Source: an uncultured virus (IMG/VR IMGVR_UViG_3300037067_017589) (lineage: Duplodnaviria; Heunggongvirae; Uroviricota; Caudoviricetes). From it: a DNA stretch of 64,000 nt. Each line of letters begins with the position of its first letter. Position 1 is the first letter of the stretch. The translations under genes and the position numbers were made by a program. Shown here in pieces: positions 20,475 through 57,320 of the stretch. Below the pieces are notes generated by a model. It was not told where the DNA came from. It was given only the letters and a program-made list of their open reading frames with translations, and made no database searches. The DNA is taken from IMG/VR virus record IMGVR_UViG_3300037067_017589; one strand, written 5' to 3'.

Positions 20475-20700
20475 ATGAACTACCCTCACCTAAAGGTTTC
20501 TTGGATCCCAATGGTTCCAACATATTGAGGATTATCCTCAATATCCTGTTCCAGGTAATAAATGTTTAACACCTAAAATTTTGATTCGTTTTTTCTAAAA
20601 AATCACATCATATATTTGAATCAAGCCTCAAAGAGGCTTTGTGCTAAAAAATAGCACCATGTGATCTTCTATCTTAGAATATATCAAGAGATTCCTAAAA
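20475..20700 (-). mobile_element. non-autonomous IS200/IS605 derivative, right end and omegaRNA-like core (left end lost)
   Basis: Homologous to 22113-22410. Ends GGGTAGTTCAT on minus strand, small deletion in the right-end hairpin. Confidence 0.85.
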
Positions 20701-20709
20701 TTTATTTAT

Positions 20710-21045
20710 TTATTTGTTTATTTCTGCTTGTTCAGCACAACAAATACAAATAGTTATACCAGGAATTGCTTCTAAACGTTTTATACCAATTTCTTCATCA
20801 CATTCTTCACAAACACCATAACTATCATTATCTATTTGTTCAATAGCTTTTTTAACAGCAATTAATTGTTTTAAATAATTAGCAGAAAGTTTATTTTGCA
20901 CCTTTACCAAAGCATTTGCTTGAATAAAATCTGTTTCATCTCCATCACAATCAATTTCACAATCATAATTATTTAGTGTTTTAATAAGTTTATCTCTTGT
21001 TTCAATATATGTTTTTTTTAAATTATTTTTATCTTTAATTTTCAT
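20710..21045 (-). CDS. DksA/TraR C4 zinc-finger protein
   Basis: GDETD, YGVCEECDEEIGIKRLEAIP...CICC. Confidence 0.92.
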   Translation of the reverse strand: MKIKDKNNLKKTYIETRDKLIKTLNNYDCEIDCDGDETDFIQANALVKVQNKLSANYLKQLIAVKKAIEQIDNDSYGVCEECDEEIGIKRLEAIPGITICICCAEQAEINK

Positions 21046-21161
21046 ATTTAAACCATATAATTCTATTATAAGAAATTCTATTCTAAGAAGAATTATACAT
21101 AGATAATTGAGTTTCTATGCATAGAAAATTCTAAAAATAAATCAGAGTAAAAAATAATATT

Positions 21162-21641
21162 TTATAACTCAGATATATTTTTAATATTATTTAAACGAAT
21201 AACTTCATGTTTTTTTAATTTTGGTTTTGGTATTTTCGAATTTTCATCAATAAGTGAATCAAATTCAACAGATACTAATTCATTATCATTAAATGTAATT
21301 CCATCAATTTCACATGATTTTAAACCACTGCACCAAACAATCCATCCTTGAAATTGGCCTTTATAAGCTTTTATAGTTCTACTTGCTAATTGTTGTGGAG
21401 TAACTGTAACGGATATTTTTTGAATTTCACTAATGCAAGGTCCTTTAACTTCATAATATCCTTGACCTTGACCATCTTCAAAAACAGTTGGTTCAATATT
21501 AAATTCATTAATAAATGAATTTTTAGCTTCAGAAGAAGTATTTGACATAATTGTTTTATATATAATTTTATCATTTTTAATAGCTGCTAAAAAATAAAAT
21601 CTATCACGTGTTTTATGTTTTTTGGAAATTTCTGTATTCAT
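21162..21641 (-). CDS. hypothetical protein
   Basis: 159 aa ORF. Confidence 0.7.
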   Translation of the reverse strand: MNTEISKKHKTRDRFYFLAAIKNDKIIYKTIMSNTSSEAKNSFINEFNIEPTVFEDGQGQGYYEVKGPCISEIQKISVTVTPQQLASRTIKAYKGQFQGWIVWCSGLKSCEIDGITFNDNELVSVEFDSLIDENSKIPKPKLKKHEVIRLNNIKNISEL

Positions 21642-21753
21642 ATTTTTAACTTTCTATTTAATATATTTATAATAAAGATTATTAACAATAATTTAGTTAT
21701 ATTTTTAGTTATTTTTTTTTCGATAAAAAACAATACCAGTATTTTTTTAATTG

Positions 21754-22092
21754 TCAAATTTTATTTTTCTTTTTACGAAAAACTTTATATTTATCTTTAA
21801 GAAGTAATAATAAAGAATTTTGAGGAATAAACTTTATCATTTTTATTTCTTGTAATTTGCGTATCTCACCTGTAAACACATTGTGAGCAAGATGACTTTT
21901 TTGTATATATGGATTAAGAGTTCCAAATCCATTAACAATGATTATTTGATTATTAATCAGATCTTCTACTATATTTTCTATTATTATATTTATAGAATAA
22001 TAGATTTTTTTATAAGTTACAATATTATTCAAGCGTTTTTGAATTTTTTTAGCAATATCTATTCTATGAATTATATTTGATTTGTTTTTCGT
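21754..22092 (-). CDS. HU/IHF-like DNA-binding protein
   Basis: IVNGFGTL, HNVFTGE, IKFIP. The frame extends upstream to an ACG at 22092 behind AAGGAG. Confidence 0.82.
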   Translation of the reverse strand, partial: TKNKSNIIHRIDIAKKIQKRLNNIVTYKKIYYSINIIIENIVEDLINNQIIIVNGFGTLNPYIQKSHLAHNVFTGEIRKLQEIKMIKFIPQNSLLLLLKDKYKVFRKKKNKI

Positions 22093-22112
22093 AAAAACTC
22101 CTTTTAATTATA

Positions 22113-22410
22113 GTGAACTACCCTCACCTAAAGGTAAGGGTTTCTTGGATCCCCATGGTTCCAATATATTGAGGATTATCCTCAATAGCCTGTCCCAGGG
22201 CAATAAATGTTTAATAATTAAAATTTTTATTCATTTTTCTAAAAAGATCACATCATATATTTGAATCAATCCTCAAAGAGGCTTTGTGCTAAAAAAAATA
22301 GCACCATATGATCTTCTATTTAGAATATATCAAGAAATTCCTAAAATAAAGAAAAAGTTTAACAACAATTCATTCCTCCCCTAAAGGAAAGGGAATTCTT
22401 GCACGTTAGG
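22113..22410 (-). mobile_element. complete non-autonomous IS200/IS605 derivative (298 bp)
   Basis: TTTAA target motif, left end CCTAACGTGCAAGAA, right end GGTGAGGGTAGTTCAC, no target duplication, no credible ORF. Confidence 0.9.
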
Positions 22411-22433
22411 TTAAAAAGGTTAATATTATATAC

Positions 22434-22607
22434 TTATTTTGGCACTTTCACTCGATTATAATCGATATTCATAATTTTAATCCACCCGTTCTCGTGTCGC
22501 AGTTGTTGCCGACTCTTTTTCCCGGACCCCATGTCCTGTGCATCTGCGTCACGAGAGACTTGCTTCTCATATTGTCGGTCTTGAAATAAAATTGTAAATT
22601 GTTCCAT
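22434..22607 (-). CDS. small hypothetical protein (57 aa) between two IS derivatives
   Basis: GGAG RBS; MEQFTILFQDRQYEKQVSRDADAQDMGSGKKSRQQLRHENGWIKIMNIDYNRVKVPK. Confidence 0.6.
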   Translation of the reverse strand: MEQFTILFQDRQYEKQVSRDADAQDMGSGKKSRQQLRHENGWIKIMNIDYNRVKVPK

Positions 22608-22619
22608 GTTAATCTCCGT

Positions 22620-22851
22620 ATGGTTCCAACATATTAAGGATTATCCTAATTTGATTCGTTTTTCTAAAAAGATCATATTATATATTTGAATCAAGCCTCA
22701 AAGAGACTTTGTGCTAAAAAATAGCACTATATGATCTTCTATTTAGAATATATCAAGATATTCCTAAAATCAAGAAATTCCTAAAATAAAGAAAAAAGTT
22801 TAACAACAATTCATCCCTCACCTAAAGGAAAGGGACTTCTTGCACGTTAGG
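22620..22851 (-). mobile_element. non-autonomous IS200/IS605 derivative, right end lost
   Basis: ATTAA then CCTAACGTGCAAGAAGTCCC left end. Internal deletion and a short duplication relative to the 22113 copy. Confidence 0.85.
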
Positions 22852-22871
22852 TTAATATTTTAATAACAATA

Positions 22872-23303: not shown

Positions 23304-23336
23304 AATTTTTATCCTTTCAATATTAAAAATACAATA

Positions 23337-23870: not shown

Positions 23871-23873
23871 TAT

Positions 23874-24426: not shown

Positions 24427-24438
24427 TTTAATTACTTT

Positions 24439-26730: not shown

Positions 26731-26748
26731 ATGCTAAAAATTGCCCAA

Positions 26749-28802: not shown

Positions 28803-29591
28803 TTAAGTTAAATCACGTTCTGGTCTAAAAATATCACTTCCAGTATTTAATATTGTTGCCAATCTAGTTTTATCATCTGAAAATAATGGTGTTTCAAAAT
28901 CAACTATCCATTTGTGTTTTGTAATTTGACCATGTTGAGTATTTAATAATTGTGGCACAAGGTATGTTGATACGCCACGTCTAAATGATGTTGGATAAGA
29001 ATTAAAATTTATACCAGCATCTTCTATAATTTTTTTTCTTTCTTCTATATTTTTATCTGCTAAAAGTTCATCTGTTTGTTTTCCATATTTAGAATATAAA
29101 GTTTCATATACTGCATATTTCATACAATAAAATTGTTTATATAATATATAATTAACAGCTTCATTTATATCTGGTACTGCAAATGTATGTGCTTTAAAAG
29201 TAATTATACCATCTAATTTTGGACGATCATTCATTCCCCAAAAATTAGTTAAAAATTCATATGATGTAAGTGAAGATGCTACAGAAGATATTTTTTGTAT
29301 ATTATTACCAAACCAAGGTTCAGTATCTAATGTTTTGTCATTTTTTAAAATAATTATTATTTTATCACTATATTGATAACCAAAAACAGCTCCATCAATT
29401 TGTTTAGCTATTGATAACATTGTTTTATTAAATAATGCCATAGTTTTATGACAAAATGGTTTTGGTATATTATGAGAAACACTTGAAAAAGATCTGGCAT
29501 CAATTTTAATTATTACAGGAATTCTACCAATAATACTATAATTATAAGCGTTTTCATATAAATTTTGTCTATATTGTAATTGAGCCATCAA
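28803..29591 (-). CDS. Thg1-like tRNA(His) guanylyltransferase / 3'-5' polymerase family, divergent
   Basis: PVIIKIDARSF, KPF, YQYSDKI, WFGNNIQKISSV.SS, GINFN..P..FRRG. Confidence 0.85.
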   Translation of the reverse strand: MMAQLQYRQNLYENAYNYSIIGRIPVIIKIDARSFSSVSHNIPKPFCHKTMALFNKTMLSIAKQIDGAVFGYQYSDKIIIILKNDKTLDTEPWFGNNIQKISSVASSLTSYEFLTNFWGMNDRPKLDGIITFKAHTFAVPDINEAVNYILYKQFYCMKYAVYETLYSKYGKQTDELLADKNIEERKKIIEDAGINFNSYPTSFRRGVSTYLVPQLLNTQHGQITKHKWIVDFETPLFSDDKTRLATILNTGSDIFRPERDLT

Positions 29592-33384: not shown

Positions 33385-33556
33385 GTGAACTAACCTTACA
33401 TTTAAGTGATGGTAGTTCACTTTATTATTCCTTGTAATGATATAATTTATATTGAAAAATTAGCATAATTATTTTTGTAATATTCTTTGATTTTATAAAA
33501 TAATAAAATTCCATAGCAATTCATTCCTAATCTAAAGGGGCTTCTTGCACGTTAGA
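33385..33556 (-). mobile_element. degenerate IS200/IS605 remnant (left end, tnpB start, inverted double right end)
   Basis: TTTAA then TCTAACGTGCAAGAAG; homology to 14870-14992; GTGAACTA...TAGTTCAC at 33385-33420. Confidence 0.8.
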
Positions 33557-33725: not shown

Positions 33726-34020
33726 CCTTTTCAACAAGAAGTCCCTTTCATTTAGGGAGGGATGAATTGTTGTTAAACTTTTTCTTTATTTCTAGAAATT
33801 TCTTGATATATTCTAAATAAAAGATCATATGATGCTATTTTTTAGCACAAACCCTCTTTGAGGTTTAATTCAAATATATGATGTGATCTTTTTAGAAAAA
33901 TGAATAAAAATTTTAATTATTAAACATTTATTGCCTAGAACAGGATATTGAGGATAATCCTCAATATGTTGGAACCATGGGGATCCAAGAAACCCTTACC
34001 TTTAGGTAAGGATAATTCAC
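33726..34020 (+). mobile_element. complete non-autonomous IS200/IS605 derivative (295 bp)
   Basis: TTTAA at 33721-33725, left end CCTTTTCAACAAGAAGTCCC, ends TTCAC. Confidence 0.9.
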
Positions 34021-34036
34021 TTAGAATTATACATAT

Positions 34037-34160: not shown

Positions 34161-34205
34161 TCTAACGTGCAAGAAGTCCCTTTCCTTTAGGTGAGGGTAG
34201 TTCAC
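34161..34205 (+). mobile_element. 45-bp minimal IS derivative (left end fused to right end)
   Basis: TTTAA|TCTAACGTGCAAGAAGTCCCTTTCCTTTAGGTGAGGGTAGTTCAC. Confidence 0.85.
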
Positions 34206-43902: not shown

Positions 43903-43918
43903 ATAGAGGTATTTTAAT

Positions 43919-44200
43919 ATGACTGAAACAAAAGGAAAAGATTTTAACTATTTTAAAACAGTAACTGCTGTAGGAAGTTGGACAATAGATCCACAAGTAC
44001 TTGTAACATTTCGTGGAGCTAGACGTATAATGTTTGTAGGAATTACTGGAGATAATGTTGAATATTCTTTTAATGGTGTAACAACTCATGGAAGAATTAG
44101 TGCAGATCAAATATTTAATTTTGATTTAAGAAACGAAGATAAAATTTGGTTTAAAGGAACTGGTACTGTAGATGTGCATATTTGGCATGCTGGTTGTTAA
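43919..44200 (+). CDS. small hypothetical beta-rich protein, probably virion-associated
   Basis: 93 aa, GAGG RBS. Confidence 0.7.
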   Translation: MTETKGKDFNYFKTVTAVGSWTIDPQVLVTFRGARRIMFVGITGDNVEYSFNGVTTHGRISADQIFNFDLRNEDKIWFKGTGTVDVHIWHAGC

Positions 44201-44289
44201 TAAATTAGCTAAAAAAAAACAAAAAACAAAAACAATACAATACATAACTTAATTGTTAATGATATATTATTTATTAACAAAGAGTTATT

Positions 44290-45408
44290 ATGCGAATTAA
44301 AATACAACAATTTCTATTTTTTAAATCACACTCGTGGGCAGTTGTAGGTCAAAATTTAGGGCGAGCATTTATTAAACAAGGACATGATGTAGAATTTATA
44401 TCTACAGATGGAATTGATTATAGATTTTTACCAAAAGATTTAATTCCTTTTGTTCGAGATAGGCCAAATGGAATTTATGATATGCAATTAAGTTATACTG
44501 CACCACATAATTGGCCAAATTATACTTCCAATGGAATAAAACGACGTTATGCAATTTGGAATTATGAATATAATTCTAAACAATTTGATAATAAATCTTT
44601 TTCACTATTACATGGTTTTGGTAAATATTATAAATCTGTAGATTATGTACTTCCATCTTCTAATTTTACCAAAGATGTATTTTTAAATATGAAAATTCCT
44701 GAAAATAAAATGATTGTAATTCCTCATGGAATTAATTTAGAAGATTATACCAAAGATGAAGTTTGGAGTTTAAAAACAAAGAAAAATAAAAAGATTTTAC
44801 TAAATGTAGCACAACCTCATCTTAGAAAAGCATTACATTTAGCTTTAGAAGCTTTTGGCAAAGCTTTTACCAAAAAAGATGATGTATGTTTAGTTGCAAA
44901 AATATTTAAACAAAATAAAACAAATCATCCATTTGATGTTGATTTTAATCAAATTTACAAAGAATTTGAACATAAATTTCCAAATCATGCAGAAGTTGAA
45001 TTTGTTTTTGATTATATTACAAATATAGCTAGTATTTATAAAGCTTGTGATATTAATTTTTCAGCTACACATACTGAATGTTGGCATTTACCTTCACTTG
45101 AAGCATTAGCTTGTGGATTAATAAATATTGTTCCTAGATATGGTGGAATTTTGGATTTCTGTAATAATACAAATTCTTTATTAATAGATGGATCTGTTAA
45201 ACGTGCTCCAAAAAATCACCAGTATTGGGAATCAAACCCATTTGCTGTGCATTTTGTTATTAACACAGATGATGCTGCAAAGAAATTAAAATTAGCAGTT
45301 GAACAATATGATCACTTAAAATCTTTATTTTCACAAAATATGAAAACTACTTCAGAAAAATTTACATGGGATTTAGCAGCAAAACAAATATTATCAATTG
45401 ATTCTTAA
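44290..45408 (+). CDS. GT4-family glycosyltransferase
   Basis: PS.FTK, VIPHGI, RKAL, ECWHLPSLEALACG. Confidence 0.88.
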   Translation: MRIKIQQFLFFKSHSWAVVGQNLGRAFIKQGHDVEFISTDGIDYRFLPKDLIPFVRDRPNGIYDMQLSYTAPHNWPNYTSNGIKRRYAIWNYEYNSKQFDNKSFSLLHGFGKYYKSVDYVLPSSNFTKDVFLNMKIPENKMIVIPHGINLEDYTKDEVWSLKTKKNKKILLNVAQPHLRKALHLALEAFGKAFTKKDDVCLVAKIFKQNKTNHPFDVDFNQIYKEFEHKFPNHAEVEFVFDYITNIASIYKACDINFSATHTECWHLPSLEALACGLINIVPRYGGILDFCNNTNSLLIDGSVKRAPKNHQYWESNPFAVHFVINTDDAAKKLKLAVEQYDHLKSLFSQNMKTTSEKFTWDLAAKQILSIDS

Positions 45409-45787
45409 TCTTTTATATTTTCTGATAAAATATATTAGTAAGGAAAATAAATAGATAACTGATTAATAATAAAAATGTATTATTTCTGTAAATTATTTGG
45501 GTTCATTTGAATTTCTATACTACTATAATTTATACAAAATTTCTATTATATATGTTTTAAAATTGAATAATATTTTTTTTGTTAAATTAATATTATATTA
45601 TTTTGCAAACAGAATTAATTTTGCTAAATTAAATACTTATTTTTTCTGGTAAAATATTTCACAAGGCGAAAATTAATAAATTATAATATCATCTTTAATA
45701 TTAAACTAATGAAAATATCAACCCAATTCCTACTTTTACGATTTATTAATCGATAAATAAATTAAAAAAGCTACCCTAGTATATATT

Positions 45788-45829
45788 TATTATAGTATTA
45801 TAGTATTATAGTATTATAGTATTATAGTA
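45788..45829. repeat. 8-bp tandem repeat x5 upstream of a GT2 gene
   Basis: (TATTATAG)5 just before the GAGG RBS. Confidence 0.92.
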
Positions 45830-45846
45830 GCAAGAGGTGTGCCAAT

Positions 45847-46560
45847 ATGAACAGTTCAAATGAAAAAAAGTTAGCGATAGTGATTCCAGTTTTTAATAAT
45901 TTTCAATATACAAATAATACATTGAATAGTTTATCTAAATTACCTTCATCTCACATAATTATATTAGTTGATAATAATAGTACTGATAATACTAAATTAT
46001 TAAATTCAACAGATAAAATTAAAATCATTAGAAATAATATTAATCTTGGATTTGGAAAAGCGTGTAATCAAGGATTTATTTTAAGTAAAGAATTAGGATA
46101 TGAAAATATTATGTTCTTAAATAATGATATTAAAATTATTGATAAAGAAAATTGTTGGACTAATGATATTATTTCAGAATGCAAAAAAGGATTAATAGTT
46201 GGACCAACAATTGGTTGTTTAGATAATAATTTTCAATTTATTTGTGAATCAAGTAAATTTCCTTCACGAGGATTTTGGTATATGAGCGGATGGTGTATTT
46301 CCGCCTCAGCAAATATATGGGATAAATTAATTATTCAAAATGAAGAAGGTCCATTTTTTACTAAATTTTTTGCATATTTTGAAGATACAGATCTTTCTTT
46401 TAGAGCAAAAATACTTGGAATTCATTTTTTAATAATTAATATTCCGGTAAAACATATTGGTCGAGTTACAGGAAAAAAGCTTAATTTAGGGGATATGTAT
46501 CTAAAATCACGTAATATATTTATTCAACTATGGAGTAATCGAAAATCGGAGCTTGCATGA
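45847..46560 (+). CDS. GT2-family glycosyltransferase
   Basis: IVIPVFN, VDNNSTD, NLGFGKACNQG, FLNND, YFEDTDL. Confidence 0.92.
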   Translation: MNSSNEKKLAIVIPVFNNFQYTNNTLNSLSKLPSSHIIILVDNNSTDNTKLLNSTDKIKIIRNNINLGFGKACNQGFILSKELGYENIMFLNNDIKIIDKENCWTNDIISECKKGLIVGPTIGCLDNNFQFICESSKFPSRGFWYMSGWCISASANIWDKLIIQNEEGPFFTKFFAYFEDTDLSFRAKILGIHFLIINIPVKHIGRVTGKKLNLGDMYLKSRNIFIQLWSNRKSELA

Positions 46561-47345
46561 AATTAAAAATACTTACACTACATTGGAATCAAATAGACAT
46601 GCTCCGTAGGCTGCATAAGACTCTAATCCCATCTCTGAGCTATTTAGATTATTGTTGGCATATTAAAGATAATGGATCTAAGGATGGATCGGATCAGTTT
46701 TTAAAATCGATCGAATCAAATCGAATTAAAACATATTTTTGCGGTCATAATAGAAATTCATTTTCATCTGGAATGAATATTTTATTTGATAGAATTAAAC
46801 CAGATGATAATGATTTAATTCTATTATTAAATAATGATCTTTGGTTTGGAGATAATTCATCAATTGATAATATGATTTCTTTATTTAAAAGTGATGTAGG
46901 TATAGTTGGAAGTCGTATTTTATATCCAAATAGTAATTTATTACAACATGCTGGAATATATTTTTCAAAAAAATATAATTACATTCCATACAATTTTCGT
47001 CACGGTGAAAAGGACGATGATAAATCTAGAAGTAATAATGAAGCTGAAGCAGTAACAGCAGCTTGTATGTTAACAAAAGCTGAATATTTTAGAAAAGTTT
47101 GCACTACAAATATTAGTGGTTTAAATGGATTTTCAGAAAAATATTTTTGGTGTTTTGAAGATGTTGATTTTAATTTATCTGTAAAATATAATCTTAATAA
47201 AAAAATTATGTATTGTGGAAAAACTAAGATATTTCATGAAGAAAGTGCATCATTAAAGAAAAATCCTGTTAATAAAATAATGTGGAATCATAATTTAAAG
47301 ACATTTAAAAATAAATGGGATGGAAAATTCAATAAAGCAGATTAG
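46557..47345 (+). CDS. GT2-family glycosyltransferase
   Basis: DNGSKD, LLNND, VTAACM, FEDVDF, HEESAS. Confidence 0.9.
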   Translation: MKLKILTLHWNQIDMLRRLHKTLIPSLSYLDYCWHIKDNGSKDGSDQFLKSIESNRIKTYFCGHNRNSFSSGMNILFDRIKPDDNDLILLLNNDLWFGDNSSIDNMISLFKSDVGIVGSRILYPNSNLLQHAGIYFSKKYNYIPYNFRHGEKDDDKSRSNNEAEAVTAACMLTKAEYFRKVCTTNISGLNGFSEKYFWCFEDVDFNLSVKYNLNKKIMYCGKTKIFHEESASLKKNPVNKIMWNHNLKTFKNKWDGKFNKAD

Positions 47346-47402
47346 TTTGTTAAACCCCTAACTCTCTTTTTTAATTAATAAAAAATAAAATCAATTTACA
47401 AA

Positions 47403-48374
47403 ATGTCACGTAAAAAAATAAAATATAAATCCAAATTTTTTCCATTTTCAGCTGGAATTCCATGGAAAATTGAACGTGGTAAATATATTATTCCAGAAAT
47501 TGATGGACAAATTTGGAATGATGTTTTAAAAGATAAACATATTATAATAACGGCATTTGGTGGAATATTAGAATCTTTCATTTCATTATGTGCAGCTGAA
47601 GCTATTAAACATACAGTAAATAATAATAAATTATCATGGATTGGAAATTTTGAGTATTATGATTTTGTAAAATTTCAAGGATTATGTACATTAAGTAATA
47701 TAAAAATTACAGAGGAAAATTTAAAAAATTATCCAGTTCCAATATTTTTTGATAAAAATGATAATGCTTATTTTAATATATTAAATAATTATTTAATTCG
47801 AAATAGTTATTGGGGTAAATATCCTGAAAAAATTAATCTTCCAATTTTTGAACAAATATATAAAAACGTTTTAATTCCATGGAATAATTATACTCCAAAT
47901 CTCAGATATTTAGGTACAGAATTTATAGATAATTTATATAAAACTGGAAAATTTAATTCTAATAAAACTAAAATAATTTCAATTATTTTAAATGATTGCG
48001 ATAATAATATGTTAGATTGGAATATTCATAATATAAAAGAATTTGCACAATTAGTATCAAATAAAGGATTTAAGGTAGTATTATTTACAAAATATATATA
48101 TAGTTTTTATGGATCAAATATAAATATATATAAATATGATTTTAAAAATATAATGCAAACAGTAATAAAATCATGGATGGTATTATCAAATGATATAAAT
48201 TGGTTAATAATATCTATGATGATTTCTAAATCGAAATTAATATCTAGAAAAATTAATGGTCCATTGGATTTATTAAAAAATGCCGAGTCACTTGGTATTG
48301 AGAATGATATATTTGTATATACAAAATGGATATCTCCAATAGATGTTTTTAATATATGCGAAGGTTTTATATGA
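47403..48374 (+). CDS. hypothetical protein, possibly a divergent GT-B (GT9-like) fold
   Basis: FGGILESF, W....KEFA.L...GF, V.SND loosely match GT9; context. Confidence 0.4.
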   Translation: MSRKKIKYKSKFFPFSAGIPWKIERGKYIIPEIDGQIWNDVLKDKHIIITAFGGILESFISLCAAEAIKHTVNNNKLSWIGNFEYYDFVKFQGLCTLSNIKITEENLKNYPVPIFFDKNDNAYFNILNNYLIRNSYWGKYPEKINLPIFEQIYKNVLIPWNNYTPNLRYLGTEFIDNLYKTGKFNSNKTKIISIILNDCDNNMLDWNIHNIKEFAQLVSNKGFKVVLFTKYIYSFYGSNINIYKYDFKNIMQTVIKSWMVLSNDINWLIISMMISKSKLISRKINGPLDLLKNAESLGIENDIFVYTKWISPIDVFNICEGFI

Positions 48375-49111
48375 TAAATACTACATTAATGATGGTAACT
48401 TATAACAGATTAAATTTAACAAAAGAAACATTAGATGATTTACTAAATACTGTTAATCGTCCATATAATTTAGTAATTATTGATAATGGTTCAACTGATG
48501 GAACTATTAATTATCTTAATACTTTACAAGATACAGAAAATGTTAAATATCATATTAATCTTGTTAATTCTAATAAAGGTATTGCTGTTGGCCGTAATAT
48601 AGGTTTGAAAAAAGCAGATGAATTAAATACACAATGGTATTGTACAATTGATAATGATGTTAAAATGCCAAATGGATGGTTAGATGAATGTATTAATATA
48701 TTAATTGCTAATAAAGGATTTGCAGCTATTGGTGTAAATTTTGAAGATACTAAATATACAGTTATTACAAAAAATGGATATTCATTCCAAGATAAACCAC
48801 ATGGCAATTTAGGTACTGCATGTATGGTTTTTACAAAACAGTTACATAAAATGCTTGGATTTTTTAATACAGAATATGGAATTTATGGAGAGGAAGATGC
48901 TGATTTTGGAGTTAGAACTCGTGTTTTAGGATTTAAAATTGGTTATATTGAAAGAATGGGTAATCATTTAGGTAGTGGATTAAATGATATTGGTAAATAT
49001 AGAGATTTTAAAACTAAACAACATAATGATAATTTCCCACAATTTAGAAAAAATTGTGGACTATATTCTCAAAAACAAAAACAATTATTTATTCCATATA
49101 AAGAATTATAA
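48356..49111 (+). CDS. GT2-family glycosyltransferase
   Basis: VTYNR, IDNGSTDGT, NKGIAVGRN, IDND, YGEEDAD. Confidence 0.92.
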   Translation: MRRFYMINTTLMMVTYNRLNLTKETLDDLLNTVNRPYNLVIIDNGSTDGTINYLNTLQDTENVKYHINLVNSNKGIAVGRNIGLKKADELNTQWYCTIDNDVKMPNGWLDECINILIANKGFAAIGVNFEDTKYTVITKNGYSFQDKPHGNLGTACMVFTKQLHKMLGFFNTEYGIYGEEDADFGVRTRVLGFKIGYIERMGNHLGSGLNDIGKYRDFKTKQHNDNFPQFRKNCGLYSQKQKQLFIPYKEL

Positions 49112-50050
49112 TATTTCTAACATTTTTTTATAGTATCTATTAGGATCTGTTTGGTAGAAAATACCTTTCGGATCTTTCATATATTGAATAGCAGCATGCT
49201 GATATTCTTCAAATTGTTGTTTAGAAAAGTTTTTTATATAGTTTATAAGTTCTTTTTCATCAATTGTTTTATTATTATTTTTTGTAATTATAAATTTTCT
49301 TAAATCAATAAATGCTTTTTCTGGAACAAAATCTTCAACATTATAACATCCAATATATATAGGAACAGCTCCACCATATATAGCATGAGGTAATTTTTCA
49401 GTTAAATAGTTATAAGAATATAATGGATCATAAATATTTTCAGTACAGATATTAAATTTATATTTACAAATTTCACCAAGTTTATCTGTAGTTCTACCTT
49501 TAAAATATGGTAAAGGTAACCTTGATGTTCCATATTTTGAAACTATAATTTTATTTTTATATAAAATATTACCAATAAAATTTCGTAATTCATATATAGA
49601 AGATTTGTGATTTGAAAATTTATCAGCTGAGATAATTACAGCACCATTAATTCTATTATCATGTGAATTCCAATTATTTATAAAATCTAAATAAGTAATA
49701 TGACAACTATTTATATTTTTATTAAGAATAAATCTATCATTACTAGCATAGTTTATTGGAATAATTTTATGTTTAATATTAGTATTTTCAAATACTTTAT
49801 AAAATGGTGAAAATATTTTAGAATATTTATTTAAATAAAAATAATCATAATCTTTTAAACTAACAGTAATTGGTTCAAGCATTATAAAATTATCATTATT
49901 TATAGGATATTTACAAGATTCATATCCCATAAATACATTTGGAATATTCTTGTCACGAATATTATTTATCCAAACTTTTCCTTCAGGACCATCGTATTCA
50001 AGAGATTTTTTAGGATGACCATAATATACAATATTAATTTCTTTTACCAT
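49106..50050 (-). CDS. GT10-family (alpha-1,3/4-fucosyltransferase-like) protein
   Basis: YKFNICTEN...YLTEKL..A..GGAVPIYIG, FIDLRKF. Confidence 0.85.
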   Translation of the reverse strand: MVKEINIVYYGHPKKSLEYDGPEGKVWINNIRDKNIPNVFMGYESCKYPINNDNFIMLEPITVSLKDYDYFYLNKYSKIFSPFYKVFENTNIKHKIIPINYASNDRFILNKNINSCHITYLDFINNWNSHDNRINGAVIISADKFSNHKSSIYELRNFIGNILYKNKIIVSKYGTSRLPLPYFKGRTTDKLGEICKYKFNICTENIYDPLYSYNYLTEKLPHAIYGGAVPIYIGCYNVEDFVPEKAFIDLRKFIITKNNNKTIDEKELINYIKNFSKQQFEEYQHAAIQYMKDPKGIFYQTDPNRYYKKMLEIL

Positions 50051-50052
50051 GT

Positions 50053-50811
50053 TTGTTGATATATCGTATTTTTATGAAAGAAAAAAGATTTGTAATAGTT
50101 ATTCCAAGTTATAATAACAAACAATGGTGTAATAAAAATATTTTATCTGTTCTTAATCAAAATTATTCTAATTATAAAATAATTTATACAGATGATTGCT
50201 CATCTGATGGAACTGTTACAGAAGTAGAAAAGTTATTCTTTGGTAAAAATAATTGTATTTTAATTAAAAATACTGAACGTTTAGGTGCCATGAATAATAT
50301 GTATAATATGGTTCACAGTTGCGATGATGATGAAATTATTATAGTTTTAGATGGTGATGATTGGTTAGCTAATGTTGAAGTTCTTAATAGATTAAATAAA
50401 GAATATAATAAAGAAAATATATTTATAACTTATGGACAATATAGATCTTTTCCAGATAATAAACTTGGTTGTTCACGTCCAATTCCAAAATATATTATAG
50501 ATAATAATAGTTATAGAAAATTTCATTGGTGTTCATCACATTTAAGAACATATTACGCTTGGTTATTTAAAAAAATAAATAAAGAAGATTTTATGGAGAA
50601 TGGAAAATTTTTTGATATGACTAGTGATTTAGCAGCAATGTTTCCTATGTTAGAAATGGCTGGTATTAATCAATCTTTTATTTCTGATGTTTTATATATT
50701 TATAATTGTGAATCTGAAATTAATGATAGTAAGGTTGATAGAATAAGACAAATATATTTAGAAAAAAAAATTAGAGCAAGTAAACCATACAATATTTTGA
50801 AAGAGTTTTAA
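50053..50811 (+). CDS. GT2-family glycosyltransferase
   Basis: IVIPSYN, DDCSSDGT, LDGDDWL, SHLRT. Confidence 0.9.
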   Translation: MLIYRIFMKEKRFVIVIPSYNNKQWCNKNILSVLNQNYSNYKIIYTDDCSSDGTVTEVEKLFFGKNNCILIKNTERLGAMNNMYNMVHSCDDDEIIIVLDGDDWLANVEVLNRLNKEYNKENIFITYGQYRSFPDNKLGCSRPIPKYIIDNNSYRKFHWCSSHLRTYYAWLFKKINKEDFMENGKFFDMTSDLAAMFPMLEMAGINQSFISDVLYIYNCESEINDSKVDRIRQIYLEKKIRASKPYNILKEF

Positions 50812-51548
50812 TGACAGTAACTTTTAGTAAATTAGGCACATATGGTCAACGTGGGAATATGTTGTTTCAAATAGCTGCAACTATTGGATATGCTAAAAAA
50901 TATAAAGTACCATATATATTCCCAAAATGGGAGCATCAGAATGAGTTTGCTATATCAGATGAATATTTTGTAAATATTAATAAAATAAAATTCGATAATA
51001 CTTATAAAGAATCTAATTTTAGATATAATAAAATTCCATTTAAAAAGAATTGTGATTTGTTTGGATATTTTCAAAGTTGTAAATATTTTGATAATTGTAC
51101 TAATTATATAAAAGAATGTTTTGAATTTAAAAATCCTGAAAATCATAATAAATATAAAGATATTTGTGCAATACATATAAGACATGGTGATTATATAAAA
51201 TTTTTTGATTATCATTCAATTCAAACAATGAAATATTATAATGAAGCTATGAAAAAAATACCATGTGAAAAATATATAATATTTTCAGATGATATAAAAT
51301 GGTGTAGAAAAAATTTTATTGGAAATCAATTTATAATAAATGAGACAGGATCATCTGTTATTGATTTTAAATTAATGTCAGCGTGTAATCATTTTATTAT
51401 TGCAAATAGTTCGTTTTCTTGGTGGGCTGCTTGGTTAAGTAAACATAGTAATAAAGTAATAATAGCTCCTAATAATTGGTTTGGTCCAAAATTGAAAAAA
51501 TTAAATCCAATTGATGATTTAATTCCTACAGATTGGATTTTGATTTGA
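50811..51548 (+). CDS. GT11-family (alpha-1,2-fucosyltransferase-like) protein
   Basis: G..GN.LFQ, GYFQ, IHIRHGDY, FSDDIKWC, NSSFSWWAAWL. Confidence 0.92.
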   Translation: MTVTFSKLGTYGQRGNMLFQIAATIGYAKKYKVPYIFPKWEHQNEFAISDEYFVNINKIKFDNTYKESNFRYNKIPFKKNCDLFGYFQSCKYFDNCTNYIKECFEFKNPENHNKYKDICAIHIRHGDYIKFFDYHSIQTMKYYNEAMKKIPCEKYIIFSDDIKWCRKNFIGNQFIINETGSSVIDFKLMSACNHFIIANSSFSWWAAWLSKHSNKVIIAPNNWFGPKLKKLNPIDDLIPTDWILI

Positions 51549-51578
51549 TATAATTATAATTAATACTTGGTGTAAATT

Positions 51579-52451
51579 ATGGATAAATTTAATAAAGTTA
51601 TATTATTTAATTTGTGGCACAATGGTGATTTGCATTGTGGAAGATCTTTTGTTAATTATACTTATAATTATGTTAAATCACTTGGTTTAGAATGTGAACA
51701 TTATCAAAATGTACCACTTAATTTATATAAAGATTTAGGTATTCCATGTAAAACCCCAATTAATGTAGAACATCGCACCCCTTGTTTTATAAAAGATAAT
51801 ATATTATATTTAAATACGTGGTTTGCAATTGATATGACTATTTATAATAAATATGGAGTATCATTTGATACTTTATATGAACATTTTACAAATATATTTA
51901 AAGTATATTTTGATAAGGATATTTCAACAGAAGATTTATGGACATTTTTTCCAGAAATTGATTATAACAAATTTAATATAGAAAATGCAAAGAAATTTTT
52001 AAATACTAATAAAGATAGAAAAAAAATATTTATTTCAAATGGTACTGTTCACTCTGCACAATCTATTAATTTTTCGTTTAGTGATATTATAAATTCACTT
52101 GCAAATAAATATCCTGAATATTTGTTTTTATTATCTAATGAAGATAGTTATATTAAAAATAGTGAGAATATACATTTTACAAAAAATATTATTAATAGTA
52201 ATGAATGTGATTTAAATGAAAATAGTTATTTATCTACAGAATGTGATATAATAATTGGAAGACATTCTAGTCCTTATATGTTTGCAATAACTAAATATAA
52301 TTATAATAGAAATGTAAAATTCATTGATTTTTGTATAAGGGAAAATTTTTATTGGATAGTAAATTTACCAATGACTTATAAAGCAACGATCATTGGAAGT
52401 AGAGAGATGAATCCAATGCTTATATTTAAAATAATAGAAAATAATATATGA
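51579..52451 (+). CDS. putative GT-B fold glycosyltransferase
   Basis: HNGDLH N-terminus, DLNENSYLSTECDIIIGR.S; paralogous to the C-terminus of 58918. Confidence 0.5.
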   Translation: MDKFNKVILFNLWHNGDLHCGRSFVNYTYNYVKSLGLECEHYQNVPLNLYKDLGIPCKTPINVEHRTPCFIKDNILYLNTWFAIDMTIYNKYGVSFDTLYEHFTNIFKVYFDKDISTEDLWTFFPEIDYNKFNIENAKKFLNTNKDRKKIFISNGTVHSAQSINFSFSDIINSLANKYPEYLFLLSNEDSYIKNSENIHFTKNIINSNECDLNENSYLSTECDIIIGRHSSPYMFAITKYNYNRNVKFIDFCIRENFYWIVNLPMTYKATIIGSREMNPMLIFKIIENNI

Positions 52452-53140
52452 AAACTTTTGACCAAAATAATGAAATATTAATATATACACACATTCCAAA
52501 ATGTGGCGGGACATCACTTCATGATTGGCTTTTGCGAGCATTTAATGATAATTATTTAACAATTATATCTCCAAATATTATTGATAATCAAAATTTTTCT
52601 TTATATAAAGGTTTTGGTGGTCATCAGTATTATGGTGATAATCCTAAAGATTTTAATGGAAAAGTTCCAGTTTATATTTCAGTAATGAGAAATCCTATTT
52701 CTAGATTTATATCATATTATAATCATGTATTAAATAATAAAAATCATTATTCACATAAATATATTATTAATAGTGACCCTTTAACATTTGCACATTCATT
52801 ATATAATATTAATAATGGAGAAATTTCAAATTTACAAGTAAAAATGTTAAACAATAATCGTGAAAATGAAAATTGGATTGATGCATTAAATAATATTAAA
52901 AAAAATTATATAATTGTTGGATGTTTTGAGAATATGAATGAATTTTATAATAAATTAAGTAATTTTCTTAAAGTATCACCATTAATAAAAGTTAATTATT
53001 TAAATATTTCTAATAAAAATAATATAGAATATTCTAATTCATATTTGAAAGAATTAAATGATTATATTTTAGAAATTAATAATCAAGATTATGCTTTATA
53101 TAAAGCTATTTTTGAAAACAATGATACAAAAAATATATGA
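52448..53140 (+). CDS. sulfotransferase family protein
   Basis: HIPKCGGTS (5'-PSB), MRNPISRFISYY (3'-PB), N.QDY.LY. Confidence 0.88.
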   Translation: MKTFDQNNEILIYTHIPKCGGTSLHDWLLRAFNDNYLTIISPNIIDNQNFSLYKGFGGHQYYGDNPKDFNGKVPVYISVMRNPISRFISYYNHVLNNKNHYSHKYIINSDPLTFAHSLYNINNGEISNLQVKMLNNNRENENWIDALNNIKKNYIIVGCFENMNEFYNKLSNFLKVSPLIKVNYLNISNKNNIEYSNSYLKELNDYILEINNQDYALYKAIFENNDTKNI

Positions 53141-53787
53141 AAATGTGTAATAAATGTAAAATAGAAAAAAATAAATCTGATTTTCATACAAAAAAATCTA
53201 CTAAAGATGGATTGCAATATCAGTGTAAACAATGTACAAAAGAATATTATATTAATAATAAAGAACAGTTTTTAAAACAAAAGAAACAATATAGTATTAA
53301 TAATAAAGAAAAAATTAAAGAAAAATCTAAAGAATATTATATTAATAATAAAGAACAAATTAAAGAATATCAATTAAAAAATAAAAATAAAATTTTAGAA
53401 TATAATAAAGATTATCAAAAAAAACGAAGATTAAAAGATCCAACATTTAATTTGCGTCATAATATTTCTCACTTAATTAACGAAGCACTTAAAAAACAAA
53501 ACTCTTCGAAAACTGACAAGTCTATATTACAATATCTTCCATATACTATAAATGAATTTAAACAACATTTAGAAAAACAATGGGAACCTTGGATGAATTG
53601 GGATAATCATGGTAGAATTAATAAGAATAAAAAAACATGGCATATTGATCATATAATTCCACAATTTTTTCTTCCATACAATTCAATGGAAGAAGAAAAT
53701 TTTCAAAAATGTTGGGCATTAGAAAATCTACGTCCTTTAGAGGCTTTTAAAAATATTAAAAAGAAAAATAAAATTGAATTTAAATAA
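53137..53787 (+). CDS. free-standing HNH-type endonuclease (third family member)
   Basis: CNKC...CKQC, WHIDHIIP, CWALENLRPL. Confidence 0.8.
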   Translation: MKMCNKCKIEKNKSDFHTKKSTKDGLQYQCKQCTKEYYINNKEQFLKQKKQYSINNKEKIKEKSKEYYINNKEQIKEYQLKNKNKILEYNKDYQKKRRLKDPTFNLRHNISHLINEALKKQNSSKTDKSILQYLPYTINEFKQHLEKQWEPWMNWDNHGRINKNKKTWHIDHIIPQFFLPYNSMEEENFQKCWALENLRPLEAFKNIKKKNKIEFK

Positions 53788-53817
53788 TATAAAAAACAAT
53801 AATAATACAGGAAACAT

Positions 53818-54291
53818 ATGAAAATATTACAAATATTATATCCAAACATTGAACATTGTAATCTTTTAATTAAATTATTTAATGAAATTATAGAGTTAAA
53901 AGAAGATAAAAAATTTCACCCTCATGAATTTACATATGAATTTGCATATGACCTTTGTACTGATTATGTTGGAAAAGATCTTTATTATATTATGTTAGAT
54001 AGTGATATTGATAAAGACGATCAAATTATTGCATATGGTTTATTAAGAGGATGGGATAATGGATATAAAATTCCTTGTTTGGGTATTTATGTAAGTAAAA
54101 ATTACCGTGGAAAAGGATTTTCTAAATTATTAATGAATTTTTTACATTTAGCAGCAAAAAATAATGGAGCAGAAAAAATTAGATTAAAGGTTTATAAAGA
54201 TAATGTTACTGCAGTTAGGTTATATAAGTCTTTTGGATATGAATTTAGTTATTATGATAATAAACAATATTTAGGAATTAAAACTTTGTGA
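53818..54291 (+). CDS. GNAT acetyltransferase
   Basis: V...YRGKGFSK.L, L.V...N..A..LYKSFG. Confidence 0.9.
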   Translation: MKILQILYPNIEHCNLLIKLFNEIIELKEDKKFHPHEFTYEFAYDLCTDYVGKDLYYIMLDSDIDKDDQIIAYGLLRGWDNGYKIPCLGIYVSKNYRGKGFSKLLMNFLHLAAKNNGAEKIRLKVYKDNVTAVRLYKSFGYEFSYYDNKQYLGIKTL

Positions 54292-54297
54292 GGAAAT

Positions 54298-54606
54298 ATG
54301 AGCGATACGATCGGCGGAATTATTGATAAATTATGTACAGTAGATTTGAAAATGTGGAATAATCAAGATATTCTTTATGAAATTCGTAGAATGACATTTG
54401 AAGAATATAAAAATAAGTATTGGCAAACAGAAGATGGTGCAAAAAAACTTTGGGATATTTTAAAAAAAGCATGTGATTTGAATAATCAACGTAATCAACT
54501 TATAGATGAGGTTGATGAAAAAATTGTAGAAATAATAAATTCTGCAGTTTCTGGTGAAAATTTAGACAATGGAAAATTTATTCAAAGAAAACATAAGACA
54601 TATTAA
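54298..54606 (+). CDS. helical protein, DUF4254-like
   Basis: IDKL...DLKMW..QD..R, DLNNQRNQLIDEVD. Confidence 0.6.
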   Translation: MSDTIGGIIDKLCTVDLKMWNNQDILYEIRRMTFEEYKNKYWQTEDGAKKLWDILKKACDLNNQRNQLIDEVDEKIVEIINSAVSGENLDNGKFIQRKHKTY

Positions 54607-54608
54607 TT

Positions 54609-54869
54609 ATGGATAAAAATAATTTTGGTAATTTAATATATAAACTTTCTACAATAGATCATGAACTTTGGGAAAATCAAGAATTTCTATATGAAATAAA
54701 GAGAATGACTTTTGAAGAATTTGATAATAAATATTGTAAAACAATAGATAGTAAAAAATATATGTTAAATATATTAAATAATTTATGTGATTTGAATTTG
54801 GAACGCAATAAACTTATAGATGCAATTGATGAAAAAATTATAGAAATAATAAAAGGAGCAGTAAAATGA
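54609..54869 (+). CDS. DUF4254-like paralogue of 54298
   Basis: KL.TID..LW.NQE.LYEI.RMTFEE, DLN..RN.LID.IDEKI. Confidence 0.6.
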   Translation: MDKNNFGNLIYKLSTIDHELWENQEFLYEIKRMTFEEFDNKYCKTIDSKKYMLNILNNLCDLNLERNKLIDAIDEKIIEIIKGAVK

Positions 54870-54975
54870 AAGTTGGTTTAGATTTTAATAGGAAATTTTA
54901 TGGACAATGGTCTCCACCTGTTGATCAGGTATTATTTGAAAATTATTTTAAAGATAAAAGGAATGGTTTCTTTAT

Positions 54976-56371
54976 CAAAGCAATGCAAGAAAACCCCTAC
55001 CAAGCTTGTCTTGGTGGGGGATGAATTGCATTAATGCCCTTTACATTTTCCAAACATGAGTCAAAATACTTTATATGCCAAATCCTAAATCTAAAAAGAA
55101 AACTATTTCCAGAACTATGAAGATAAAAATTGATCTTCCTAAAGATCAATTTTTACCTCTTATGGATATGGCTTCTAAAGTATATAATACTCATGTGGAT
55201 TGGTGCTTTGAGCACAAATCAATTAATACTAAAAAAGTACATGTAGATCTTTATTCCGATCTTACTAATCAATTCCCAGATCTTCCTTCTGCTCTTATTC
55301 AATCCATTAGAGATTCTGCTATTGGAAATATTAAAACTAATAATAAGAAAAAACCATGGAAATTTAAGTCATCAAAATCGAATTCCTCAGGAGTTCAATT
55401 TGATTTAAGAACTTCTTCTTTAAGAGGAAATTTATTAACAATTTCTACTTTAACTAAAAATTATCGTTATAAAACTATAATAGAAATTCCAAAATATTTC
55501 CAATACTTAATAACTGAAAAAGTTAATGGAAAAGATAAATGGAAATATAAAGGACTGCAATTAACCTTTGAGAAACAAAAACAACAGTTCTTTGTTTCTC
55601 TAATCTTTACTTCAGACCAGCCTTCTGCAAATGCAGAAGGCGATGTTCTGGGTATTGATCGGGGAATAATTAATACTATTAGTTGTTCTAATGGTATGGA
55701 AGTGTCAGGAAAACATCGTAATAAAATAAAAAGAAAGAATAGTTATAATAGGAAAAAGCTTCAGGCAAAAGGCACTCGCGCTGCCAAAACACGTTTACGT
55801 ATTTTGTCAGGACGAGAAAAGCGGTTCAGCCAAAATGAAAATCATATTATTTCTAAATCTCTAGTGCAATTACCTTTCCAATATTTCATCTTTGAAAAAC
55901 TTTCAAAGATGAATAAGAAATCCAAGGGCAAAAGAATGAATAGGAGAATTTCTAATTGGAGTTTCTACCAATTGGAAATGTATACTAAATACAAAGCTGA
56001 AGCAATTGGGAAGGTAGTAGATTATGTAAATCCACAATATACAAGTCAGAGATGCAATTCTTGCGGATACATATCTCGCAAGAATCGCAAGGGAAGTGAA
56101 TTTCATTGTATAAAGTGTGGGCATAAAGATGGAGCAGATTTCAATGCTTCAAAGAATATTAGAGACTTATGGATAAGTGAAAAAATCTCGAAAGAGCAGG
56201 CTCCAGTCAATGAGCCAAACAATAGTCTGAAAAAGATTGATAATGTTGAAAGACATTATCCGACTATTAAATTATCGCCTGGATTGAATTCCGGGGCAAT
56301 TGAAGGGATACTAACCAATTGTCTGGTAGATACAAGCCCCTACCAAGCTTTGCTTGGTGGGGGTGGTTGAC
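54976..56371 (+). mobile_element. IS200/IS605-family (IS1341-like, tnpB-only) element
   Basis: Inserted 3' of TTTAT with no duplication; matching subterminal hairpins CCCCTACCAAG...CTTGGTGGGG at both ends; ends GTTGAC. Confidence 0.93.
55075..56370 (+). CDS. tnpB: TnpB RNA-guided endonuclease
   Basis: RuvC I GIDRG, RuvC II FEKL, YTSQRC..CG...C.KCG, RuvC III ADFNA. Confidence 0.95.
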   Translation: MPNPKSKKKTISRTMKIKIDLPKDQFLPLMDMASKVYNTHVDWCFEHKSINTKKVHVDLYSDLTNQFPDLPSALIQSIRDSAIGNIKTNNKKKPWKFKSSKSNSSGVQFDLRTSSLRGNLLTISTLTKNYRYKTIIEIPKYFQYLITEKVNGKDKWKYKGLQLTFEKQKQQFFVSLIFTSDQPSANAEGDVLGIDRGIINTISCSNGMEVSGKHRNKIKRKNSYNRKKLQAKGTRAAKTRLRILSGREKRFSQNENHIISKSLVQLPFQYFIFEKLSKMNKKSKGKRMNRRISNWSFYQLEMYTKYKAEAIGKVVDYVNPQYTSQRCNSCGYISRKNRKGSEFHCIKCGHKDGADFNASKNIRDLWISEKISKEQAPVNEPNNSLKKIDNVERHYPTIKLSPGLNSGAIEGILTNCLVDTSPYQALLGGGG

Positions 56372-57004
56372 AGAAGCAGGAGCTGTTGATGGAGTTAGTA
56401 TTAGCTGTTGTAAATTCTTTGAAGAATTTATGGGATGGAAAGGTATTAATTTTGAACCATCTAGTAAATATTATCAACAATTAATAAAAAAAAGACCAAA
56501 GAGTACAAATTTAAACATGGGATTATCTAATAAGACGGAAATTTTAATTTTTAAAGATGTTATTACACCTACAGGTGAATGTTCTGGTAATGGTTCATTT
56601 AAACATACAAAAGAACATTTAGATGAGTTAACTTACCATAAAATTATATCATTTAAAGAATATGAAGTTAAGACAATTAATTATATTGATTTGATTTATA
56701 AATATAATATTCAAAAAATTGATTTATTTTGTTTGGATGTTGAAGGTTTTGAAATTAAAGTATTAGATGGAATGTCAAAGTCTAAAATTCTTCCAACTAT
56801 TTTATGTATAGAATATAATCATCTTGGTTTAAGAAATATTATAGATTATGTACTTGAACTTAATATTGGATATAAATTTGATTTTATTAGTTTTAATAAT
56901 GCTTATTTTTCTACTAATGATATTCAAAAGAAAGAAAAATGGTTTGGAGAAACTCATGAAGAATTTTCAGTTGAAAATGGAAAAGAAAAATGGGTTAAAT
57001 TTAA

Positions 57005-57301
57005 CTTTTTTCAACAAGAAGTCCCTTTCCTTTAGGTGATGGATGAATTGTTGTTAAACTTTTTTCTTGATTTTAGGAATTTCTTGATATATTCTAAATA
57101 GAAGATCACATGGTGCTATTTTTTAGCACAAAGCCTCTTTGAGGCTTGATTCAAATATATGATGTGATCTTTTTAGAAAAATGAATCAAAATTTTAGTTA
57201 CTAAACATTTATTGCCTGGGACAGGCTATTGAGGATAATTCTCAATATGTTGGAACCATGTGGATCCAAGAAGCTCTTTCCTTTAGGTGGGGGTAGTTCA
57301 T
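57005..57301 (+). mobile_element. complete non-autonomous IS200/IS605 derivative (297 bp)
   Basis: TTTAA at 57000-57004, left end CTTTTTTCAACAAGAAGTCCC, ends GGGTAGTTCAT. Confidence 0.9.
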
Positions 57302-57320
57302 TGAAAGAATTAACAATACC
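57101..57320 (+). ncRNA. putative TnpB omegaRNA (scaffold plus flank-derived guide); equivalents in the other copies
   Basis: Follows TTGATT-N17-TATTCT. Nested stems AGATCACAT/ATGTGATCT, GTGCTA/TAGCAC, AAGCCTC/GAGGCTT, TATTGAG/CTCAATA, then the right-end hairpin. Confidence 0.55.

Follow-up and report, generated by a model that had tools for sequence, protein, structure and literature searches.

It has been reported that non-autonomous palindrome-associated transposable elements (PATEs) 'often encode omegaRNAs' for the TnpB proteins of other elements, acting in trans (Meers et al. 2023, preprint, PMC10055086). Along the same lines, stand-alone mobilised omegaRNAs have been described to work in trans with compatible effectors and to add target sites (Altae-Tran et al. 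2023, PMC10691335, citing 2021 work by these authors). A comparison for the RNA itself is offered by the omegaRNA of ISDra2, for which a 116-nt scaffold, a UUUA loop at positions -20 to -17 and a 3-bp pseudoknot between -5..-3 and -105..-103 have been described (Nakagawa et al. 2023, PMC10097598). Here we describe five dispersed copies of a gene-less element in a stretch of 64,000 nucleotides (hereafter the window) from an uncultured virus of the Caudoviricetes (IMG/VR record IMGVR_UViG_3300037067_017589). Sequence comparison indicates that these copies are, with little room for doubt, PATE-type non-autonomous IS200/IS605 elements derived from a phage insertion sequence (IS) that carries TnpB only. 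Whether they are active as guide RNAs at present is a more delicate matter, to which the sequence evidence assigns a probability approaching, though not exceeding, an even chance.

The phage elements resemble the PATEs of Geobacillus stearothermophilus in that they contain no protein gene and have ends in common with TnpB-bearing elements of the same genome (PMC10055086), while they share with the stand-alone omegaRNAs the lack of effector and transposase, the presence of effector loci in the same genome and a flank-derived guide (PMC10691335). Compared with the Geobacillus PATEs, they differ in their host, a probable huge phage in which TnpA was not found, and in a core shortened to ~98 nt, to which a foreign, structured leader bearing a phage-type promoter-like box is attached. 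The statement on stand-alone omegaRNAs concerns cellular genomes and, set against either system, the phage copies are known from sequence alone. Effector-less omegaRNA elements are accordingly a kind already in print, to which a phage-borne family is added here, and the distributed guide library that an earlier note on this DNA had put forward is not a new idea (PMC10691335, PMC10055086). No paper on phage-borne PATEs turned up in the literature on TnpB in phages, in a search that was not extended further.

Anatomy of the gene-less copies

The earlier note had reported five copies of about 297 bp when complete, and this inventory was confirmed: three copies are complete (295-298 bp) and two are truncated (Table 1), the other window copies being 87-93% identical to the 57005 copy in pairwise comparison. 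The absence of a credible open reading frame (ORF) was also borne out in the two copies checked (57005 and 33726), where the only ORFs lying wholly inside are of at most 26 aa and longer ones merely run in from, or out into, the flanks. The segment CTTGATATATTCTAA is indeed identical in all five copies, and the guides that had been listed correspond to the 16 nt past TTCAC or TTCAT in the four copies with a right end.

The element is composed of a 46-nt left end, a foreign leader of ~150 nt and the final ~98 nt of an IS that carries TnpB only. At either end there is an imperfect hairpin, the two being nearly the same in sequence and in direct orientation (CAAGAAG-CCCTTxCCTTTAGGxGAGGG); on the left the hairpin is followed by GATGAATTG, on the right by TAGTTCAC. 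Judged from its sequence, this layout is the IS200/IS605 arrangement and not a terminal inverted repeat. When element positions 11-46 are set against the left end of the IS remnant that the window carries at 14790-14992, 34 of 36 positions agree, and for positions 200-296 the agreement with the 3'-terminal sequence of the full-length IS in locus L021 is 90 of 97 (93%). Positions 47-199, on the other hand, show no similarity to the rest of the IS when compared with L021 (1-1000), L020 and the window remnants. Because both ends match the IS while the middle does not, the copies can be regarded as PATE-type derivatives of a TnpB element designated family A, in agreement with the earlier proposal that they are protein-free derivatives of the element to which the tnpB fragment at 2..325 belongs. 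With regard to individual copies, the left end of the 22113 copy is of the same type as that of the full-length IS, and stem A of the 33726 copy has two mismatches.

Searches for the element elsewhere returned no match in the GenBank phage collection, and in representative bacterial and archaeal genomes there was a single exact match to the core motif, a chance hit on a contig of 57% GC, where no element surrounds it. A reading of the 57005 copy as a self-splicing or in-frame insertion was dropped, given that no intron family matched and that the frame entering from upstream meets a stop 30 nt into the element.

The 22620 copy has no guide because its right end is gone. In place of this end there is a GC-richer insert of ~200 nt with a 57-aa ORF (22434-22607, minus strand) and a GGAG ribosome site; no Pfam family matched this ORF, the insert (22421-22619) had no match in the GenBank phage collection, and an Rfam search over 22380-22680 (E up to 1) gave chance-level matches at most.

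The omegaRNA core

A metagenome scan with a 22-nt core motif yielded 31 loci, comprising 21 full-length tnpB 3' ends, 9 PATE copies and one PATE of a second type. The core alignment holds 29 distinct sequences (17 from full-length IS, 11 from PATEs and one from the second PATE type), and the structure drawn comprises three stems (A, B and C), the hairpin of the right end and a pseudoknot of 4 bp. Across these sequences 95.2% of cells are paired, and 9 pairs are changed on both sides compared with 4.3 in shuffles, none of the 500 shuffles reaching 9; the comparison of genomic copies envisaged in the earlier note has in this way given a positive result for the core. When the pairing partners are slid by 1-3 columns, pairing falls to 27-50%, a control that is flattered because the structure was drawn from the same 29 sequences. 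Covariation is seen in stems B and C and in the right-end hairpin, in which 3 of 8 pairs are changed on both sides, and stem A does not vary among the IS copies, in which it also encodes CLGQA. Among PATE copies, stem B exhibits compensatory changes from G-C through G-U to A-U (L071) and from G-C to U-A (L012). The AAC and GUU strands of the pseudoknot can pair in 26-29 of the 29 sequences. Read from the opposite strand, the U-G pairs of the plus strand would become A·C mismatches, indicating that the structure belongs to the top strand.

TnpA needs only the terminal hairpin and the cleavage site, about 40 nt, and helices located further inward consequently point to a role as RNA. Taken at the level of sequence and predicted pairing, the last ~98 nt is the omegaRNA scaffold, here called the core, and with both ends and the 3' segment that encodes the omegaRNA all kept, such an RNA would take its guide from the flank. 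The earlier claim of an omegaRNA-like scaffold was in this respect correct as to its presence, but not as to its place, since the nested hairpins to which it had been assigned form the foreign leader without detectable homology to the IS.

The expected likeness to known TnpB omegaRNAs was found in part. An intact family-A homologue of 372 aa, encoded in the record G004, is homologous to the TnpB of ISDra2 (E 3.7e-30), with the RuvC motifs D, E and D aligned. As in the published ISDra2 features compared here (PMC10097598), the UUUA loop of the right-end hairpin is located at -20..-17, GUU at -6..-4 can pair with AAC at -98..-96 in a possible pseudoknot, and the predicted guide begins right after the transposon end. 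In contrast, the middle is formed by three successive hairpins where ISDra2 has nested stems 2 and 3, the transposon-associated motif (TAM) is TTTAA instead of TTGAT, an equivalent of stem 1 could not be shown, and the two RNAs are without sequence similarity.

The same core is present in the second PATE type, at locus L057, whose left end differs from that of the window PATEs and is instead the left end of another IS family in G001, the nearest viral record. The leader of this type is also unrelated, with five hairpins and a TGCTATATAAAT box, and the core is joined to it within ~5 nt of the same point. Homology between PATEs and IS starts at -98, where the candidate pseudoknot strand lies. 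The amplified type thus far described retains the ~98-nt core, whereas a single-copy derivative at 33385-33556 retains only the minimal right end.

Proposed origin and mode of action

Regarding the origin of these elements, the tnpB body of a phage TnpB-only IS would have been swapped for a foreign leader of ~150 nt, with retention of the 46-nt left end and of ~98 nt containing the omegaRNA core (three stem-loops and the right-end hairpin) and the cleavage motif TTCAC. The resulting element would be mobile as single-stranded DNA moved by a Y1 TnpA from elsewhere, and would be inserted 3' of TTTAA without target duplication. An extended -10-like box, TGATATATT, may start a transcript of ~215 nt that runs through leader and core into the flank, and TnpB would trim this transcript to a ~98-nt scaffold plus a ~16-nt guide matching the copy's own empty site. 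The family-A TnpB, supplied in trans, could then cut alleles that carry TTTAA plus the guide sequence and lack the element, and such cutting would favour retention of the element or its copying into element-free genomes. As a whole, this combination of a mobile PATE and a trans-acting guide RNA is the best explanation at hand, and we consider that it stands an even chance of being correct.

Leader and promoter-like box

The predicted RNA from 57090 to 57317 has a folding energy of -66.8 kcal/mol (z = -4.5) and includes a three-way junction in the leader, which is the best-conserved part of the copies. In 12 distinct leader sequences 96.7% of cells are paired. The outer-stem pair of helix P1 is C-G, U-G or U-A, just as the earlier note had it, and in all five variable P1 pairs the changes keep pairing on the plus strand only, through G-U wobbles. 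The argument that covariation in the leader reveals selection on RNA structure nevertheless fails statistically, because its single compensatory cell is matched by 258 of 500 shuffles.

The strong folding, the high conservation and the strand-specific pairing of P1 would also be expected if the junction were a regulatory or stabilising RNA that hitch-hikes on transposon ends. This possibility is regarded as extremely unlikely, seeing that a viral scan for the leader core gave 10 loci, of which five are PATE copies and five are chance matches, with none outside the elements. Neither did Rfam 15 provide a family, with zero matches at gathering score over the whole window and only chance-level ones (E >= 0.17) over 56900-57400 at E up to 10; moreover, a variant with half of the leader missing persists, and the lack of significant covariation tells against this view as well. 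As a separate observation, the loop of leader hairpin P2 in L054 and L055 is changed from TTTTTT to AAAAA with the stem unchanged, as if a small hairpin had been inverted.

Upstream of the junction, the TGATATATT box is the same in all window copies and unchanged in 11 of the 12 distinct aligned leader sequences; L072 shows a G-to-A change in it. The related motif TGATATAWT occurs 27 times against 12.8 ± 3.3 expected, and 6 of its 22 non-PATE sites precede an ORF of at least 100 aa, at a distance of 21-42 nt from its first ATG (P = 1.6e-4, on a background in which 3.9% of positions qualify). A longer look-alike of the box also lies ahead of a gene in G001. These sequence features make an internal promoter plausible. 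The promoter that had been proposed earlier, TTGATT-N17-TATTCT, is present in the 57005 copy but was not called by a sigma-70 scan, which returned two other sites against 2.6 expected.

The resemblance of the box to gene-proximal phage motifs raises the question of whether the element is a mobile promoter or 5'-leader cassette reading into the downstream gene, with the omegaRNA part as a passenger. In line with this, each of the four copies that keep a right end is followed, 0-280 nt further on, by a co-oriented ORF (57301.., 34301.., ..22032 and ..20396), and the terminal T of the 57005 copy makes the TTG that opens the downstream frame. However, the genes in each half of the window all point as the elements do, so that any intergenic insertion falls upstream of a co-oriented gene, and a promoter cassette offers no reason for the three retained omegaRNA stems; this explanation is therefore held to be very improbable. 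The last base of the right end in the 57005 copy is T and not the usual C, which gives TTG where CTG would otherwise open the long downstream frame (57297-57303), and this ORF matched no Pfam family.

Insertion sites and mobility

As had been noted earlier, TTAA precedes the left end in all four window copies that retain one. The same is true of all 16 distinct left ends collected (14 with TTTAA, two with ATTAA), whereas the chance expectation for TTAA is ~2% at 25% GC. This set includes the window copies, solo ends, copies in G001, L012, L047, L054 and L057, and the full-length elements of G001 and G004. Their flanks contain no target-site duplication, and the flanking sequence differs at every site; similarly, 15 full-length copies from one metagenome have TTCAC as their last letters and unrelated flanks beyond it. 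At the level of sequence, these differences in flanks between genomes show past mobility. Furthermore, summed depth over the PATE is ~20-30 times that of its flanks in the sequencing runs X1 and X6, which fits many PATE copies in the communities sampled.

The ten IS-derived pieces of the window are all on the minus strand left of 33556 and all on the plus strand from 33726 onwards. This switch is close to the minimum of the cumulative GC skew (in the 32-34 kb row), and gene direction flips there too. In IS608, the top strand is used on the lagging-strand template and orientation is tied to replication direction. The orientation observed here fits this bias but is confounded, because gene direction flips at the same place. 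The skew and strand pattern suggests a replication origin near ~33.4-34.3 kb. Three IS-derived pieces are crowded in the intergenic region at ~33.4-34.3 kb.

The parent element and the case for inactivity

The product of the truncated tnpB at 2..325 is the probable cognate nuclease of the PATE copies, as deduced from sequence: over residues 67-108 it is 100% identical to the TnpB of L021. No entry of the protein database is more than 78% identical to this N-terminus in either of the two length ranges searched, a ceiling that leaves the searches silent on whether the window gene is intact. The tnpB start at 14790..14992 appears, on sequence grounds, to have been fused to a NADAR gene by a deletion; in the fusion region (14538-14992, minus strand) the NADAR part covers profile positions 99-162 of 163, the C-terminal third.

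Several observations weigh against copies that are both mobile and active as guides. Among the five window copies one is without its right end and another without its left end, a leader variant that lacks half its length persists in two genomes, and stem A is defective in 5 of the 11 PATE sequences in the core alignment. The proposed pseudoknot displays zero covariation, its fourth pair being unpaired in 25 of 29 sequences, and to this must be added the non-significant covariation of the leader and the failure of the sigma-70 scan to call the proposed promoter. As regards the nuclease, only 108 codons of the cognate tnpB are present in the window and the left end of this copy has been lost, unlike that of the G001 copy. 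In L021, the closest relative, an extra T in a T-run causes a +1 frameshift after about codon 108, although this rests on one assembly and could be an assembly error. Among the tnpB 3' ends, the four most similar to the PATE core include three without the same 51 nt of the zinc finger. This loss, in L048, L050 and L068, removes the second Cys pair, while L049, which is of the L021 type, keeps the zinc finger. Concerning transposition, Y1 TnpA (PF01797) had no match in the 80 window ORFs or in G001-G004, among which G002 is a 458-kb record rated 100% complete. Lastly, the empty sites in related phages that the earlier note had suggested looking for were not found for any of the five copies in G001, G003, G004 or the run contigs over 54500-59500. 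G003 and G004 have only the repeats in common with the window, and among contigs of four DNA runs over 54500-59500 none bridges an empty 57005 site; the contig joints near this copy, with sides of 20-24 letters, resemble artefacts of the repeats.

Much of the above would be anticipated if the copies were inert, decaying miniature inverted-repeat transposable elements (MITEs), once amplified by TnpA, in which the 98-nt segment survives only by adjoining the right end. The truncations, the stem-A defects, the missing leader covariation, the degraded tnpB copies and the failure to find TnpA all agree with such a history, as does the presence of other IS debris with only a minimal right end (33385-33556 and 34161-34205). 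On the other hand, TnpA would require just the ~40 nt that are kept at 33385-33556, where no omegaRNA stems remain, while the amplified type and L057 keep 98 nt. In addition, compensatory changes preserve stem B in the PATE copies, which are free of coding constraint, and the TGATATATT box has stayed constant in nearly all leaders. On balance, inert debris is considered unlikely, albeit an explanation to be taken seriously, and the mobile PATE with a trans-acting guide RNA remains the preferred account.

Table 1. Positions of the PATE copies, their parts and related IS-derived features (window positions unless a locus is named).
Feature	Position	Strand	Support and remarks
Complete PATE copy, 297 nt	57005..57301	+	model R1, 121.8 bits
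Left end of the 57005 copy	57005-57050	+	sequence comparison
TGATATATT box of the 57005 copy	57085-57093	+	sequence comparison
Leader three-way junction of the 57005 copy	57101-57172	+	
Predicted omegaRNA core and right end of the 57005 copy	57204-57301	+	
Predicted guide of the 57005 copy: the 16-nt flank following TTCAT	57302..57317	+	analogy with TnpB omegaRNAs
Complete PATE copy, 295 nt	33726..34020	+	114.7 bits; predicted guide 34021-34036
Complete PATE copy, 298 nt	22113..22410	-	123.7 bits; predicted guide 22097-22112
PATE copy without left end, right end kept	20475..20701	-	99.9 bits; predicted guide 20459-20474
PATE copy with left end and leader, 40-nt internal deletion	22620..22852	-	all beyond GGAACCAT gone
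Second PATE type, 361 nt, after TTTTTAA	L057, ~191-551	-	same omegaRNA core
N-terminal 108 codons of family-A tnpB	2..325	-	runs off the window; no left end upstream
45-nt left/right-end hybrid: left-end start, one hairpin, tail TAGTTCAC, after TTTAA	34161..34205	+	34.5 bits
172-nt deletion derivative: left end, decayed first tnpB codons, minimal right-end hairpin	33385..33556	-	
Left end with the ~35 initial codons of a family-A tnpB, joined to the C-terminal portion of a NADAR gene	14790..14992	-	

A second TnpB element and mosaic junctions

The window contains another TnpB-only element, of a family B unrelated to family A, at 54976-56371 (plus strand; tnpB at 55075-56370, 431 aa). It has different hairpins and the end GGTTGAC, and is located inside an FkbM methyltransferase gene, after TTTAT. 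In run X5, one contig passes directly from 54975 to 56372, its shorter side spanning 71 letters, and represents the precise empty site of this element; in the empty allele the FkbM frame is restored (NGFFI followed directly by EAGAVDG), and the TAM and the 16-nt guide target are unchanged.

Comparison with G001 (91398-106130) revealed 4 mismatches over 42281-56455 (14.2 kb) and 54 mismatches in the 549 nt of 56456-57004, the divergence beginning 85 nt past the right end of the family-B element. Homology to G001 ends at 57004, the base before the PATE, and the right flank differs too; G001 is without the 57005 PATE and without the two ORFs at 57302-58881. These breaks in similarity suggest recombination (mosaic) junctions near elements, bearing in mind that a single case proves nothing. 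It could be envisaged that TnpB elements and guide cassettes together serve as RNA-guided homing drives between co-infecting huge-phage relatives, the element-free allele being cut and repaired from the element-bearing genome, and that this repair would leave mosaic junctions. Such a scenario is consistent with the family-B empty site and its intact TAM and target, the drop in identity 85 nt beyond that element and the stop of homology at the 57005 cassette; even so, it is judged quite unlikely.

The virus and its setting

The window has a GC content of 25% and encodes tail-fibre proteins (PHROGs match), many glycosyltransferases, a topoisomerase, an NAD-dependent ligase and ClpP, together with HU-like genes, a DksA-like zinc-finger gene and a Thg1-like gene. 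The source virus is probably a huge phage, because G001, a viral contig of 106 kb, has a completeness rating of just 25%. The stretch around position 57 kb is present in public landfill and groundwater metagenome runs, with shares of 0.91-0.94 in four runs, and the contigs of run X1 over this stretch have zero differences from the window. Among 16 public runs listed, none is an RNA run that carries it.

Other features of the window include genes for a ribosomal protein S21 homologue, the Thg1-like tRNA-His guanylyltransferase and two Hsp20 proteins (4475-4822, 28803-29591 and 9567-10411, all on the minus strand). There are also tandem coding repeats, with 168-nt units at 38538-39509 within a 761-aa ORF beside the tail-fibre genes, and with 45-nt units at 2212-2638 within a 265-aa endonuclease-like ORF.

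Conclusions

If inert, the copies would be ordinary transposon debris. They enlarge the known class of effector-less omegaRNA elements by a family carried by phages, and they constitute a natural experiment on the minimal TnpB guide scaffold, in which two independent lineages keep the same ~98 nt with unrelated promoter-leader modules upstream. Should the homing scenario hold true, it would incidentally supply a natural definition of a minimal omegaRNA, ~98 nt in length. If the guide RNAs are active, one nuclease gene could defend or spread several phage loci against element-free relatives, which would have a bearing on the mosaicism of huge phages and on the design of compact TnpB guides.

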